From an uncultured Gemmatimonadales bacterium (GTDB lineage Bacteria > Gemmatimonadota > Gemmatimonadetes > Gemmatimonadales > GWC2-71-9): a stretch of DNA of 64,000 nucleotides. Positions 21,001 to 25,673 of this stretch are shown piece by piece. Each line of letters starts with the position of its first letter. Position 1 is the stretch's first letter. Location: assembly GCA_963798915.1 (NCBI GenBank), contig CAWCVB010000010.1, positions 64,001 through 128,000 on the forward strand, given 5' to 3'. Made by a program: the position numbers.

Positions 21001-24000
21001 CACGCGCGTTGGGACCGGCAATCGCATCGGGACAGTGGACCGCCCAGCTTGCCTATTGGATTGGCCCCATCCTGGGCGGAGTGCTGGCGGCGCTGGTGTG
21101 GGAGTTTTTCCTGATGGGCCGGCGTGGTGAGGAAGAGCACCTGAGGGCTGAAGGCTGAAGGCTGAGGGCTGAAGGCTGAAGGCGAGAAGGTGCGCTTTCA
21201 GCCTTCAGCTTTTTGCCTTTGGCTTTCAGCCCGCACCCTCATCCCCAACCTCACCCAGTATCCCACCAGCACCACCGCCGTGATGACATAGGCCGCCACC
21301 ATGTATCCGCCGTTCTGCGGCGTCTCATGCATCGGTGTTTCCCTCCAGTTCCGTCTCGCGCGATCTCGCCAGCAGGCCCAGCCCGTAACGGGTGGTCACG
21401 AAGCCCACGAAGAGAACCAGGTCAACCAGGAACGCAATCAGCAGCGTCTGCAGCATTGAATCCGGCAGCGATGGCGCGCTGGGCTTGAGCACCACCGGCA
21501 TGGGATGAATGGTCCGGAACAGGTAGACGCTGAGATGCACGAACGGCACCAGCAGGCACCCCAGGATCGCCACCACCGCACCATAGCGTGCCCGCTCGTC
21601 CGGATCGGCAATTGCCGCCCGGAGGGAGAGATAGCCGACAAAGAGGAAGAACAGGAACAGCGTAAGGGTGAGCCGCGCATCCCATTGCCACCATGCGCCC
21701 CAGATCGGCTTGGCCCAGAGCGGACCGGTCGTCAGCATCACGATGCTGAACACCACCCCGACCTCCGCCGCTGAGGACGCGAACAGGTCGAGGCGCTCAT
21801 CCCGCAGCCAGAGGTAAAGCGCGCTGGTGATGCCAACGATGGAGAAGACGAGCAGCGACGTCCAGGCCGCGGGAACGTGCAGGTAGAAGATTTTCTGGGC
21901 CAGGCCCTGGCTGACTTCCATGGGCGCATACCGCTGGGCCAGCAGGTAGACGCCCGCCAGCAGCACCAGGCCGATGGTCGTGATGACCCGGCCCCGGCGC
22001 GCGATCGTGAGCCCACGGACTCTCTCGGCGATCATTCGTCGGCCACCGCGGGAAAAATGAGAATGGAGACTGTCACGAACACCACGTCGTACACGGCGAG
22101 TAACCTAAGCCAGCCATACACTTCGCTCAACGGACGATCCGCGAAGAGTCGTGCCGTCACCTGCACCGCGCCGATCAGTGGCGGAAGCATGAACGGCAGC
22201 AGCAGCAGCGGCAGCATGAGTTCGGCGAACCGGGTGCGGACCGCCATGGCGCTGAACAAGGTGCCCACCGCGACGAACCCCACCGTGGCAAGCACCGTCA
22301 CCAGCGCGATCGGTCCCAGAATGTGCCAGACCGGGCGGTTGAAGAACACCACGAACAGCGGCAGCGCCACGAGCTCGACGGTAAAGACAAACGCAAGGTT
22401 GGCCAGCAGCTTGCCCGTGAAGATGGCCTCTCGCGCCACCGGAGCCAGCCGAAGCAGGTCGAGGGCCGCGTGCTCCTTCTCCATCCCGAACGCACGGTTC
22501 AGCGTGGTCATCGCCCCGAAGGCGAAGGTGATCCACAGCGCGCTTGGCGCCAGGTCCGCCAGGCCAAGGCGGGTCGGGTCCCGGGCAAAGTTGAACACCA
22601 CCAGCACGAGGGCCGCGAACACCAGTGCCGACGTGAGCGCCGTCCGATTCCGGAACTCGACGCGCATGTCGCGTCCGGCAAGCGCCAGCGCCGCCCGCAG
22701 CGCCTCAACCACTGCGCAGCGGCTCGAGCAGGAGATCCATGGTGGCAGCGCCGGCCGCACTGGGCTCGTCCAGCACGATCCTGCCCGCCCGCAGGCCGAC
22801 GACACGGGTCGCCACCGCCCAGGCTTCGGCGGGCTGGTGCGTCACGATGATCGTGATGCAGCCATCGGCCGCCGACGTGGTGATGAGGTCGCGCAGCGCG
22901 CCGCCGGCCAGCGCATCGAGACCGGTGAACGGTTCATCCAGCAGCAGCAGTCGGGGACCATGCAGCAGGGACCGGGCGATCGCTGCGCGCTGCTGCATGC
23001 CCCGGCTCAGCGCGGGGGGGCGGTCGTGCTGTCGGCCGGAGAGACCGGCGCGACCAATTGCCTCCTGCGCGACATCGCGTGGATGCGAAAGTCCGTGCAG
23101 GCGGGCGGCGAAAGTCAGGTTTTCGAGCAGGGTCAGGTCGTCGTGCAGCCAAGTCTGGTGCGCCACGAAGCCGATCGAACGGCGCGAGGCCGGGTCGCCG
23201 CTGCGCACCTTGCGTCCGTCCAGCAGCACTTGACCGCGGGTCGGGCGGGCCAGACCGGCGAGGCAGCGCAGGAGCGTCGTCTTGCCGGCGCCATTCGGTC
23301 CGACCAGCAGCAGCGTCTCGCCGGCTTCGGCCATAAGCGAAACGCCCGCCAATGCGCGGCGGGCGCCGAATGCACGCTCAAGGTCGGTGGCGGCGAGACG
23401 TGACCCCTCAGAGGGCCGCATCAATGCGGGCGCCGAGCTCGTCGAGGCGGAAGGGCTTTACGATGTAGTCGGTATAGGGAACGTCGAGCAGCTGCAATTG
23501 GGGCTCGATGCTGAGGAACGCGGTCGCAATGATCACGGGCAATTCCGGCTGGGACTGATGGATCTCGCGAAGCAACGCCACACCGTCAGTGTCGGGGAGA
23601 CGCATGTCCAGGACAGCAACATCTGGCGTCTCTTCGGCCAGGCACGCCAGCGCTTCGGCGCCCGAAGTGGCAAACGTCAGATCGTACCGTGAAGAGAAAA
23701 ATCGCTTGTAATGATTACGGAGGGCGGGTTCATCCTCGACGATCAGGATGTGCCGCCGAACCGGACGCTCAGCCATATCGGGAACCCGGGACCGGGCATA
23801 TGCTCCACGTTCTGGACGCCGAGCGGATCGCAGCGGCGCCAGCCATCGTGCAACATTAATGGAAAGGATCGGCATCGTCCACCCGTTGTGGGTCGTGGGT
23901 CACGGGTCGTGGGACGTGGGCCTCATGACTCACGTCCGTCCCGGCTCCAGTTCGAAGAGATCGGCCAGCTTGGTCAGGGCCAGGAGAAACCGGAGCTCAT

Positions 24001-25673
24001 CGTTAGGATTCCGGAGCACCACCGGCAGCCGTCGCCGGGCAGCATGGCGCTGCGCCAGCATGAGTGCTCCGAGTCCGGCCGAATCCACGGTCCGGGTCCC
24101 GGCAAGTTCAATTACGAGCGGCCCATCCCCCTCCGGAAGCGCATCCAGGGCTTCCACGGCGGCCCGCAGAAATTCGACGCGGGTATCGAGGCCCAGATTG
24201 ACTGGGGCCGTAAGCGCACGCGCTTCCATCTGGCTGGCCTTCACGCTACCTCCCAGGCCCGATGAAAGCATCGCGCTGATCCTGCAAGCGCGGCCGGTCT
24301 GCGTTCGGCACCGAGCTATCCTGCGGCATACTTCCTGTGCCGTCAGGACCTCTGGTTTTGCGGCCCCGGATTACTCCGGGTGTGCTCTTATCGGGCAGAT
24401 CAGATTGTCTGCGTCCGCAAGTGCGGGCGCACCGACCCTGAAGGCGAGACCAGTGCCAGCATCGTAATCTATTGACAGGCAAGGGATTGCAAGCGGTCCA
24501 TGCGAGAAGTTGCAGATCGCTCCGCCGCAGCGTGCGGCAGGAATTGGAGATTCGCACTAGTTTCCCTGCTTCCTCACCCCGACGCCGATCATGACCGATC
24601 ATCAGCTCGATACCCTGCTTTCCGAACACCGGCGCTTTCCGCCCCCAGCGGAGTTCGCCGCCCAGGCACACGCCCAGCCGGGCATCTACGAGGAAGGCCG
24701 CGACGCGCTGGCATTCTGGGCTGCCCAGGCCGGCGCGCTCGACTGGATCACGCCCTGGCGGCAGGTGCTCGACTGGCAGGAGCCCCATGCGCGATGGTTC
24801 GCAGGCGGCAAGCTGAATGCGGCCGTCAACTGCCTCGATCGCCATCTCGCCGGTCCCCGCCGGAACAAGGCGGCAATCATCTGGGAGGGCGAACCGGGGG
24901 ACCGGCGCGTGATGACCTATTGGGACCTGGCCCGCGAGGTGGGCCGCTGCAGCAACGCGCTTCGCCGGCTTGGCGTGAAGCATGGCGACCGTGTGGCCAT
25001 CTATCTGCCCCTGATCCCGGAGGCGGTGGTCGCCATGCTGGCCTGCGCCCGCATCGGGGCCGTGCACTCGGTGGTCTTTGGCGGGTTCAGCGCCGAATCG
25101 CTCCGCGATCGCATCAATGACGCGGAAGCCGTCGCACTGATCACTGCCGACGGGGGGTATCGCCGGGGACAGGTGGTGCCCCTCAAGCGGTTCGCCGACG
25201 AGGCGCTCACCGGATGCCCCAGTATCAGGAACGTGATCGTCGTGCGACGCCGGGCGGGTGGCGACGGCGACGAGGCCTGGGCTGAGATGACCGAGGGACG
25301 CGATCACTGGTGGCACCGGCTCCTCGATACCGAGTCAGGGACAGCCGAAGCCGAAACCATGGACGCAGAGGATATGCTCTTCATCCTCTATACCTCCGGC
25401 ACCACCGGAAAGCCCAAGGGCATTGTCCATACCACCGGTGGGTACCTGACGCAGGCGGCCGCCACGACGAAATACGTGTTCGATCTCAAGGACGACGACG
25501 TCTTCTGGTGCACGGCGGACATCGGCTGGGTCACGGGTCACTCGTATGTCGTGTATGGGCCGCTGGCGAATGGCGCCACGGTCATGCTCTACGAAGGTGC
25601 GCCCGACTGGCCGTCTCGCGATCGCTTCTGGAAGCTGGTCGAGCGGTACGGCGTCACCATTTTCTACACCGCG

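Follow-up and report, generated by a model that had tools for sequence, protein, structure and literature searches.

The leader of a STAS-response regulator-ccmABC operon very probably contains a working GEMM-I-fold riboswitch for a purine cyclic dinucleotide which, within a sigma-54-transcribed leader, would set the output of the haem-export genes. This reading is based on sequence comparison of the window (the whole stretch of 64,000 nucleotides analysed here, from an uncultured Gemmatimonadales bacterium) with relatives of its host, and the features concerned are collected in Table 1.

The proposed mechanism can be briefly summarized as follows. An mRNA started at the sigma-54-type promoter would encode the STAS protein, a receiver-only response regulator, CcmA, CcmB, CcmC and perhaps a small CcmD. 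The ligand pocket, with A at position 20, would allow tight binding of 3',3'-cGAMP and would not exclude c-di-GMP. Ligand binding would close helix P1 (UCUGC/GCAGA with the inner CG/CG pairs). Without ligand, the 5' strand of P1 would instead be held by a complementary segment, 2 bases upstream of the ribosome-binding site, upon which the start region would refold. The cyclic-dinucleotide level would thereby be translated into the output of the half of System I cytochrome c maturation that delivers haem. If true, cyclic-dinucleotide signalling would be tied to the haem supply for c-type cytochromes, that is to the building of the respiratory chain, a new regulatory link in the abundant and little-studied soil phylum Gemmatimonadota. 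No paper joining 'c-di-GMP riboswitch' and 'cytochrome c maturation' was found in the literature searched; the sole paper retrieved with GEMM, riboswitch and ccmA is, judging from title and abstract, a study of CsrA and AcrAB.

Table 1. Features of the operon, its leader and its borders in window coordinates (counts out of 65 refer to the STAS-bearing loci compared)
Feature	Position	Strand	Basis or remark
Long hairpin built from GCCTTCAGCC repeats, where the operon and an aquaporin gene converge	21165..21212	+	T-tract on + strand
Small ORF overlapping the stop of ccmC, with a single hydrophobic stretch	21195..21332	-	
ccmC, with WGAWWQWD motif	21325..22035	-	Pfam Cytochrom_C_asm 1.9e-29; 54/65
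ccmB	22032..22805	-	Pfam CcmB 2e-30; 56/65
ccmA, haem exporter ATPase	22705..23424	-	TIGR01189 (NCBIfam equivalog), 144.4 vs 131.6 bits
Receiver-only response regulator	23408..23875	-	Pfam Response_reg 4.7e-25; 46/65
Repetitive CCCACG-rich intergenic element, STAS/response regulator gap	23879..23920	-	Sequence reading
STAS-domain protein of 104 aa, GTG 24244 being the likely start (listed ORF 23930-24271)	23930..24244	-	Pfam STAS_2 1.8e-11
Shine-Dalgarno GGGAGG of the STAS gene	24249..24254	-	Sequence reading
Switching segment CUUUCAUCGGGC shortly before the ribosome-binding site, complement of GCCCGAUAAGAG (aptamer bases 1-12)	24257..24268	-	
Spacer hairpin CGCGCU...AGCGCG, then AUGCUUUCA; weak, terminator-like	24272..24292	-	Folding, -7.9 kcal/mol in the window genome
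Outer P1 3' strand GCAGA, partner of UCUGC at 24395-24399	24298..24302	-	Pairing across 32 leaders
GEMM-I-fold aptamer (RF01051); A is G20-equivalent, A47-equivalent in CGCAAA, C92-equivalent in UGCCGAA	24304..24396	-	52.7 bits
Pre-aptamer 5' leader: hairpin-forming stretch, then conserved GACAAYYGAUC(U/C)	24397..24433	-	Alignment by eye
Sigma-54-type promoter TGGCAC-N5-TCGC (-24/-12 elements)	24444..24458	-	Sequence reading
Divergent acetyl-CoA synthetase	24591..26537	+	Acs-like divergent gene in 56/65

Identity and conservation of the aptamer

The initial annotation had placed an RF01051 RNA with A at the G20-equivalent base before the operon, as one of three copies in the genome with A, A and G at that base, and both statements are confirmed. 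The cmscan match in the window to RF01051 (c-di-GMP-I) spans the full model (1-87) well above the gathering score of 35 (E 3.6e-8), and our own covariance model (R1) gives the same RNA 102.3 bits. Model position 11 of RF01051 is the unpaired G preceding the G12-C13 pair, and the cmscan alignment displays A there, at window base 24386. We take this position to be G20 of Vc2, an assignment checked by its distance from A47. The copies on C5 (56.6 bits), C10 (the window aptamer) and C14 (35.7 bits) carry A, A and G upon alignment to our own model.

In order to describe the distribution of the aptamer, 65 STAS-bearing loci were compared, namely the window and 64 genus representatives of the host's family (GWC2-71-9). 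Our model finds the aptamer upstream of the STAS gene in 32 of them. The arrangement had been described as conserved in six other genera; the conservation stands and the number is now 31 other genus representatives. The claim that all STAS-linked copies have A also holds (32/32): the G that contacts the first guanine of c-di-GMP is absent throughout and the A which marks GEMM-Ib takes its place. The A47- and C92-equivalents are present in all 32 aligned rows, as CGCA and (U/A)(G/C)CCGA(A). Control of the haem-export half by a cyclic dinucleotide is therefore a sound prediction, since the leader aptamer is genuine, conserved and invariably of the A type; the initial annotation had proposed cyclic-dinucleotide, possibly cGAMP, control, and for its cGAMP part there is evidence both ways.

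That the operon leader holds a genuine GEMM-I-fold aptamer is also supported by the pairing of its helices. Paired bases fill 98.1% of the cells, compared with 24-45% in slid controls; 6 pairs in P2 and P3 are altered on both sides, and the observed value was reached by none of 500 shuffles. The outer strands of P1 pair at 5-7 of 8 positions in all 32 leaders, with compensatory changes between UCUGC/GCAGA (the window genome and G024) and UCCGCC/GGUGGA, and further ones in G038, G004 and G015. The aptamer core is about 95% identical in an alignment judged by eye, against 44-69% for the STAS proteins. Only about three gains or losses are needed on the gene tree. The 32 copies, having one or a few origins, are therefore not independent, and the invariant A reflects selection along one lineage and not a repeated choice.

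The window aptamer shares with Vc2 of Vibrio cholerae the family model, P1, P2 with its GNRA loop, P3, the A of CGCAAA that intercalates and the C of UGCCGAA that pairs with the ligand's second base. It differs from Vc2 by the A for G20, by GCACA for the GCAAA that follows, by a P3 base shorter by one base, and by its new gene context and sigma-54 promoter.

Choice of ligand and candidate source of the signal

Since A stands where Vc2 has G20, the RNA can take either cyclic dinucleotide, and by analogy with the natural A-variant Cbe 1-2 bispecific binding would be the most likely behaviour here. According to passages of PMC6140456, wild-type Vc2 binds c-di-GMP with picomolar affinity and cGAMP only at 10 uM, its G20A version binds c-di-GMP at 53 nM and cGAMP at 120 nM, and Cbe 1-2, itself an A20 GEMM-I aptamer, binds both. 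Cbe 1-2 comes from another phylum and another gene context. As the natural input, c-di-GMP is given an even chance, and cGAMP, alone or beside c-di-GMP, an appreciable minority share.

A c-di-GMP riboswitch in which the A lowers affinity, so that the operon needs more c-di-GMP to respond than do the cell's G-type switches, comes just short of an even chance. The nanomolar binding retained by Vc2 G20A speaks for it, as do the four canonical Asp-type GGDEF domains of the window genome, already listed in the initial annotation and all carrying GGEEF. A-type aptamers are also present in two sister-family genomes, G175 (99% complete) and G157 (100%), where Asp348 was found in all 12 parsed GGDEF domains and Arg304 in 11 of them (4 loci gave no motif), and where a search for a SMODS enzyme found none. 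The notion that A means cGAMP is thereby weakened in this phylum. One A-type aptamer (G175:C3:2425062-2425155) is found some 800 bases ahead of the domain match of a canonical GGDEF gene, and downstream of the second conserved A-class of the host's family lie secreted Ig-like repeat proteins, which are typical targets of c-di-GMP. Against these points, the affinity tuning is an assertion, and such a switch leaves unexplained both the strict separation of A- and G-type aptamers by locus inside the same genomes and the maintenance of a GGDEF enzyme altered at both Hypr signature positions.

This enzyme would be the source of the signal if the RNA were a cGAMP-selective GEMM-Ib riboswitch, with an Fe-S GGDEF protein acting as a redox-reading, Hypr-like hybrid cyclase in a Geobacter-like circuit set on haem export, a reading that is possible and on the unlikely side. 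The candidate (g01183, G000:C3:151027-152724) belongs to a family-wide group with a putative sensor made of two 4Fe-4S domains, an Fe-hydrogenase-like domain and an Fe-S motif. Positions in the GGDEF domain were mapped with spacings taken from passages of PMC6456294 (Asn339 at -9, Asp374 at +26, Tyr304 at -44). In the ortholog group of g01183, which had previously been described as an Asn-type GGDEF, position 348 is Asn in 61 of 68, Ser in 7 and never Asp. The candidate itself thus has Asn where Hypr enzymes have Ser or Thr, and no characterised Asn-348 GGDEF was found in the literature searched. At the cross-dimer Tyr304 position, Tyr or Phe occupies 60 of the 68 parsed sequences (61 once a one-residue register shift in G034, the origin of the lone 'R', is corrected), leaving no real Arg. 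All 68 carry GGDEF and none GGEEF, which with the non-Arg cross-dimer residue is the Hypr pattern and fits the rule, given in passages of PMC6456294, by which enzymes with Ser/Thr348 have GGDEF and no other motif. Five residues ahead of the motif stands an RxxD site, as in GacA, whose I-site is a subject of the same paper. The Hypr cGAMP cyclase GacA (GSU1658/Gmet_1914), as described in those passages, resembles the candidate by its non-Asp348 residue, Tyr304, GGDEF and RxxD, and differs by having Ser at position 348 and a receiver domain instead of the Fe-S/hydrogenase-like sensor.

The distribution of enzyme and aptamers can be read in both directions. The candidate is present in 29 of the 32 riboswitch-bearing representatives, is mostly confined to the host's family (64 of 71 genomes) as the high-scoring STAS-type aptamers are entirely, and A is kept in every STAS-linked copy while the 30 other GEMM-I loci of these genomes comprise 20 G-type and 10 A-type aptamers. 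Against cGAMP selectivity, the enzyme occurs just as often in genomes that lack the riboswitch, was searched for and not found in riboswitch-bearing G060 (98% complete), G054 and G004, and was not found in other families which have A-type aptamers of closely similar sequence (0 of 31 in family f2); the cyclase content of G175 and G157 counts against it as well.

The Geobacter GEMM-Ib riboswitches (Gs1761/pgcA and Gm0970) also have A at the G20-equivalent, A14 of Gs1761, in passages of PMC6140456. Passages of PMC6456294 place the Geobacter cGAMP switches before cytochrome, pilus and polysaccharide genes, a link to cytochrome biology in common with the window, where the target is haem export and not the cytochromes themselves. 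In the same passages they are terminator-based and ON with cGAMP, whereas the platform in the window would act mainly at the ribosome-binding site. No CxxCH was found in the ten downstream ORFs read at other A-type loci. A second cGAMP-type or mixed pathway independent of Geobacter, in which a redox 'dead-hydrogenase' Fe-S-GGDEF makes a hybrid signal read by A-type GEMM-I RNAs, is proposed tentatively and considered rather unlikely. Besides haem export for cytochrome c maturation, its targets may include surface proteins and a small HExxH lipoprotein, and Asn-348 would, if it were true, define a new class of hybrid-specificity GGDEF. The question at stake is whether GGDEF-made cGAMP signalling extends beyond Deltaproteobacteria, and aptamers separated into A and G by locus, together with a doubly altered GGDEF family, offer a natural test of the meaning of G20A outside Geobacter.

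Promoter, leader and direction of the switch

A sigma-54-type promoter, absent from the initial annotation, lies upstream of the aptamer and is, from its sequence, the putative start of the operon. Its GG-N10-GC elements, of the TGGCAC-N5-TTGC type, occupy a conserved position, and the window genome encodes RpoN. The strict pattern TGGCAY-N5-TNGC is found upstream of STAS at 45 of 65 loci, 28 of the 32 with the riboswitch and 17 of the 33 without it. In relatives too, the pre-aptamer leader has a hairpin, variable in sequence and self-complementary, ahead of the conserved motif, and in the window its last bases are the outer 5' strand of P1.

The switching segment pairs with the 5' strand of the window aptamer at 11 of 12 positions, and the unconstrained minimum free energy fold contains the helix between them. 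Over the 32 leaders, the longest complementary run averages 7.56, compared with 5.69 after shuffling (highest of 200 shuffles, 6.09), and the complementary segment adjoins the ribosome-binding site in 26 by our own reading of the search output. A consensus terminator scan of the (-) strand found none at the spacer hairpin; among 29 spacer-type leaders, 16 have a hairpin of -10 kcal/mol or lower with a U-rich tail.

The P1 3' strand is Shine-Dalgarno-like (GGUGGA) in most relatives. In G021, G023 and G046 the start codon follows the aptamer by 10-11 bases and GGAGGA or GGUGGAG serves as both P1 3' strand and ribosome-binding site, so that ligand should turn translation OFF there. Thermodynamic modelling of the leaders gave no consistent direction. 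Among 31 leaders, enforcing the aptamer reduced start-region accessibility in 7, raised it in 8 and left it the same in 16; among 32, the energy cost of opening rose by over 1 kcal/mol in 9 and fell by over 1 kcal/mol in 14. In the window leader the two measures point slightly to ON. For the group as a whole, OFF with ligand is taken as the slightly more likely direction.

The operon and the reach of its control

Pfam and NCBIfam searches agree with the genes first reported, from STAS to ccmC with the divergent acetyl-CoA synthetase. The family matches and the WWD motif of CcmC identify a System I haem exporter CcmABC, with CcmB and CcmC matched by Pfam and scoring below the NCBIfam cut-offs. 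The true start of ccmA may lie further downstream than in the listed ORF, and that of ccmB is probably later because its listed ORF overlaps ccmA. ccmA lies downstream of STAS in 61 of 65 rows, and most misses of ccmA, ccmB or ccmC are due to contig ends. The response regulator, present in the window as the STAS-RR-ccmABC arrangement implied, is missing in 19 of 65 rows and does not belong to the core unit, which is STAS-ccmABC.

From the response regulator through ccmC the genes abut or overlap, and synteny and gene spacing suggest that ccmABC is co-transcribed with STAS. It is improbable that the aptamer controls STAS (and the response regulator) alone, with ccmABC transcribed or translated independently and cytochrome c maturation outside its control: the direct action of a translational switch is confined to the first gene and the 55-base STAS/response regulator gap holds a repetitive, hairpin-prone element, but gene order STAS-ccmA is preserved, ccmA directly follows STAS, about 340-500 bases from its start, where the response regulator is absent, and a scan of this strand revealed no promoter- or terminator-like site within the operon.

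The small ORF at the end of the operon is possibly ccmD by its position, and a Pfam search of it returned no CcmD match. ccmE-ccmF is found at a separate locus, without a riboswitch. The window STAS resembles MlaB, the partner of the MlaF ATPase in the Mla ABC transporter, as a small single-domain STAS protein encoded beside an ABC ATPase gene. Its profile match to MlaB is weak (6e-4), the anti-sigma antagonist TM1442 being the nearer solved relative (2.4e-10). An alignment of 56 orthologs displays an invariant DS.GL motif (Asp54, Ser55, Gly57, Leu58), whose Ser sets the window STAS apart from MlaB.

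The riboswitch, its operon and their conservation

The GEMM-I aptamer of the window covers the whole model with 52.7 bits (gathering score 35, E 3.6e-8), and the cmscan alignment places an A as the unpaired purine preceding the G12-C13 pair. The two further copies named in the initial annotation for the same genome were both recovered, and alignment to our own covariance model, built on 26 aptamers linked to the STAS gene described below, gives A, A and G at model position 11 of the three copies. This position is equated with G20 of the Vibrio Vc2 riboswitch through its 27-base spacing to the first A of CGCAAA, as from G20 to A47. 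The equivalence also depends on the Vc2 numbering. Of this, only the roles of G20, A47 and C92 are confirmed by PMC6140456. Aptamers with A or G at this position are termed A-type and G-type.

Coordinates of the features discussed (G000 is the genome that contains the window; C, contig; L, fetched locus)
Feature	Location	Strand	Remark
GEMM-I aptamer, RF01051 (c-di-GMP-I)	window 24304-24396	minus	cmscan
Sigma-54-type promoter, TGGCAC-N5-TCGC	window 24444-24458	minus	about 50 bases upstream of the aptamer
Switching segment, CUUUCAUCGGGC	window 24257-24268	minus	
CCCACG-rich repeat stretch	window 23879-23920	minus	hairpin-capable
ccmD-like ORF	window 21195-21332		45 codons
GCCTTCAGCCTTCAGCCCTCA, two copies in tandem	window 21150-21215		part of a 20-pair hairpin
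Aptamer of the second A-class	G000:C5:206730-206816	minus	L001
Fe-S GGDEF protein, 566 aa	G000:C3:151027-152724	minus	outside the window; L127:1492-3189
Fe-S GGDEF ortholog of G063	G063:C16:25398-27089		L164
A-type aptamer of G175	G175:C3:2425062-2425155	minus	L244 and L260

Five genes follow 3' of the aptamer on the same strand and encode a STAS protein, a receiver-only response regulator, an ABC ATPase, CcmB and CcmC; an acetyl-CoA synthetase gene is divergent from the operon. The ATPase scores above the cut-off of the NCBIfam ccmA equivalog, ccmB and ccmC are NCBIfam model matches under curated cut-offs, and WGAWWQWD is present in CcmC. Overlapping the stop codon of ccmC is an ORF with a single hydrophobic stretch, which may be ccmD; a search for a CcmD match in Pfam returned none. 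Since ccmE and ccmF are located on another contig with no riboswitch nearby, only the haem-delivery half of System I stands behind the aptamer. The DS.GL motif of the STAS protein (Asp54, Ser55, Gly57, Leu58) is invariant in 56 orthologs; among solved structures the protein is closest to anti-sigma antagonists, with a weak match to MlaB chains. As judged from sequence, it could act either as an antagonist in partner switching or, in the manner of MlaB, as a subunit of the CcmAB ATPase. Repeats were also observed at two sites: the CCCACG-rich stretch follows the STAS stop and precedes the start of the response regulator, and the hairpin containing the GCCTTCAGCCTTCAGCCCTCA copies separates the ccmD-like ORF from a convergent aquaporin gene.

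The RNA belongs to an established family, and its variant signature is known too. New are haem export as the target, the phylum and the sigma-54 setting, together with a platform built on the P1 5' strand and the related question of a hybrid GGDEF of the Asn type. Literature searches returned no paper joining 'c-di-GMP riboswitch' with 'cytochrome c maturation', and only an unrelated one for GEMM, riboswitch and ccmA. Combining 'Hypr GGDEF' (the hybrid, cGAMP-making type) with Gemmatimonadetes or with asparagine gave none, nor was a paper found for GGDEF with 'hydrogenase-like' and 4Fe-4S; such cases, Gemmatimonadota or Asn variants among them, may be listed in the primary GEMM-Ib and Hypr papers and their supplements.

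A STAS homolog was detected in 144 of the 151 genomes of the family (E up to 1e-5), a tally that includes the unpublished G014, G068 and G134, which were not used further. The STAS loci of 64 genus representatives were compared using tblastn on 66 rows (65 loci and the window), 65 of which contain STAS. Among these 65, ccmA is found downstream on the same strand in 61, ccmB in 56, ccmC in 54, the response regulator in 46 and a divergent Acs-like gene in 56; of the four rows lacking ccmA, three are cut by contig ends, as are most of those lacking ccmB or ccmC. STAS-ccmABC is the constant unit and the response regulator is optional. Real exceptions to the synteny are seen in two genomes: G061 (L110) displays STAS and the response regulator with ccmA absent within 4 kb, and G017 (L091) lacks ccmC after STAS, possesses a divergent ABC pair (33-36% identity) and carries a STAS-type aptamer (the type found upstream of this operon) elsewhere.

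Our covariance model detected an aptamer ahead of STAS in 32 of the 65 rows and none anywhere in the remaining 33 loci at E up to 1. All 32 display A at position 11 with GCACA behind it, and share CGCA(A/C)A and a UGCCGAA-type 3' end. In the stored structure 98.1% of the cells are paired, and both partners are changed in six pairs. The observed value was not reached in any of 500 shuffles, and partners slid by 1-3 columns pair at only 24-45%. Riboswitch presence on a STAS + CcmA tree requires three changes versus 18.4 in shuffles (FastTree, 55 rows, omitting G017 with its stop codon and nine loci without a usable STAS and CcmA pair, mostly cut by contig ends), and a 13-row riboswitch-less clade is nested inside it. 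We read this distribution as one ancient gain followed by losses, and the 32 copies are therefore not independent. The aptamer core is approximately 95% identical (estimated by eye), as compared with 44-69% identity for the STAS proteins. Aptamers above 85 bits are confined to this family in a 151-genome sample of the phylum that takes in the unpublished G184 and G213.

Promoter and expression platform

The sigma-54-type promoter of the window is accompanied by an RpoN gene in the same genome. The strict pattern is present upstream of STAS in 28 of the 32 riboswitch-bearing loci and also in 17 of the 33 riboswitch-less ones, where it is located about 80-120 bases before the STAS match; the promoter is thus older than the riboswitch, which entered the leader of a sigma-54 operon already in place.

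The P1 5' strand consists of the three bases before the aptamer and its first three (UCCGCC), and the 3' strand of the six bases after GCCGAA (GGUGGA). P1 reads UCUGC/GCAGA in G000 and G024, further compensatory pairs occur elsewhere, and the inner CG/CG is also paired in the Rfam GGC-variant model. In G021, G023 and G046, the start codon lies 10-11 bases past the aptamer and the P1 3' strand doubles as the ribosome-binding site; these short leaders are predicted to be of a plain OFF design. The other 29 leaders contain a spacer of about 45-110 bases after the aptamer, and 16 of them combine a spacer hairpin of -10 kcal/mol or stronger with a U-rich tail. An intrinsic terminator was rejected for the leader of the window, where a consensus scan found none on this strand and our own scan gave only a weak hairpin of -7.9 kcal/mol with a U-poor tail.

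In 26 of the 32 leaders, by our reading, bases 1-10 or 1-12 of the aptamer have a complementary segment directly before the ribosome-binding site. By eye, codons 3-5 (CCACGC) also appear complementary to the stretch (GCGUGG) running from this segment into the ribosome-binding site, with compensatory variants in G018, G045, G040, G006 and G038. In the proposed mechanism, the segment would pair with the aptamer 5' strand when ligand is absent and with the early coding region when ligand is bound. The direction of switching was also sought by RNAfold, comparing the enforced with the free aptamer. Neither the unpaired probability nor the opening energy of the start region changed with a consistent sign, and no direction is therefore drawn for the spacer-type leaders, that of the window included. 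Because of the three short leaders, we lean towards a switch that is OFF with ligand.

Ligand and candidate source of the signal

As the natural input of the window riboswitch, c-di-GMP is given about an even chance. A contribution of cGAMP, alone or jointly, is held to be somewhat less likely, and the rest of the probability goes to neither molecule. According to PMC6140456, wild-type Vc2 binds c-di-GMP in the picomolar range and cGAMP at 10 uM, the G20A mutant binds them at 53 nM and 120 nM respectively, bispecificity is seen in natural A-variants, Cbe 1-2 among them, and the measured selectivity is affected by P1 stability. The A thus permits cGAMP binding and decides nothing.

The case for cGAMP is drawn from the GGDEF proteins. 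Nine matches had been counted for the genome in the initial annotation, and the same number was obtained here. Positions were fixed by the published spacings of PMC6456294 (Asn339, Ser348, Asp374, Tyr304), 348 being the specificity residue and 304 the cross-dimer residue. Four of the nine are canonical (Asp, Arg, GGEEF). Another, the Fe-S GGDEF protein, combines a pair of 4Fe-4S domains with an Fe-only-hydrogenase-like domain, an Fe-S motif and a GGDEF domain, and displays Asn at 348, Tyr at 304, the motif GGDEF and RxxD five residues before it. It is matched in 74 of 81 family genomes (E up to 1e-30, the unpublished G014 included), with about 68 full-length orthologs. Of 68 orthologs read, 61 carry Asn and 7 carry Ser at position 348, and none has Asp there; 60 have Tyr or Phe at position 304 (the single apparent Arg is a register shift), and the motif is GGDEF throughout; G044 gave no parse. 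The paralogs in the same genomes have Asp348 in 9/9, Arg304 in 7/9 and GGEEF in 7/9. This pattern agrees with the rule, published in PMC6456294, that Ser/Thr348 enzymes carry GGDEF only. The G063 ortholog contains one in-frame TAG.

Against cGAMP, the Fe-S GGDEF protein is equally common in riboswitch-less genomes, and it was not found in the riboswitch-bearing G060, G054 and G004. In the phylum sample it was detected in 64 of this family's 71 genomes and in none of the 31 from the sister family f2; nevertheless, genomes of f2 and f9 carry similar A-type aptamers (three in G175, one each in G157 and G215, two in G220), in a sample drawn with our own A-type model and hence biased towards A. G-type aptamers were found there in G175, G204 and G179, two aptamers were unparsed, and all 12 pass a clan gathering score. 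In G175 (99% complete, 3 contigs) and G157 (100% complete), Asp348 occurs in 12/12 parsed GGDEF domains and Arg304 in 11/12, four loci being without the motif. G175, G157, G215 and G220 yielded no SMODS enzyme; G000 carries one, on C17. A-type aptamers in the phylum therefore need no recognisable cGAMP synthase. Co-occurrence of the Fe-S GGDEF protein with A-type aptamers was rejected as proof of a link, since the enzyme is near-universal in the family with or without the riboswitch and A-type aptamers occur without it elsewhere.

One A-type aptamer of G175 lies about 800 bases upstream of a GGDEF-domain match. The gene 3' of it is canonical (Asp348/Arg304, motif GGDEF), and the arrangement could represent feedback control of a diguanylate cyclase. 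Eight aptamers in L242-L252, with A rather than G at the A47 position, score best with RF03167 (c-di-GMP-I-GGC) in a search containing little sequence; the winning clan member does not tell the type of binding site.

Other targets of A-type riboswitches

Cytochromes were rejected as targets of the other A-type riboswitches, CxxCH being present in 0/10 of the downstream ORFs read. At least seven other genera possess a second STAS-type aptamer with the same platform, located before a lipoprotein of about 145 aa with HEMLH (HExxH): G017:C1, G016:C4, G142:C3, G090:C10, G086:C2, G231:C1 and G098:C67, among loci L225-L230, L232 and L224. No such lipoprotein-linked copy was found in G000, and the copy of G076:C60 (L227) precedes a different ORF, without HEMLH.

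A second conserved A-class, of the form CGCUGCUCAG-A-GCAAA...GACGCAGAG, includes the C5 aptamer of G000; a search of Pfam with the protein behind that aptamer gave no match. The class is also found at L006, L015, L018, L022, L023, L025 and L026, and precedes secreted proteins with Ig-like repeats whose N-terminus is mostly like MPFTFKLSQRLARL.
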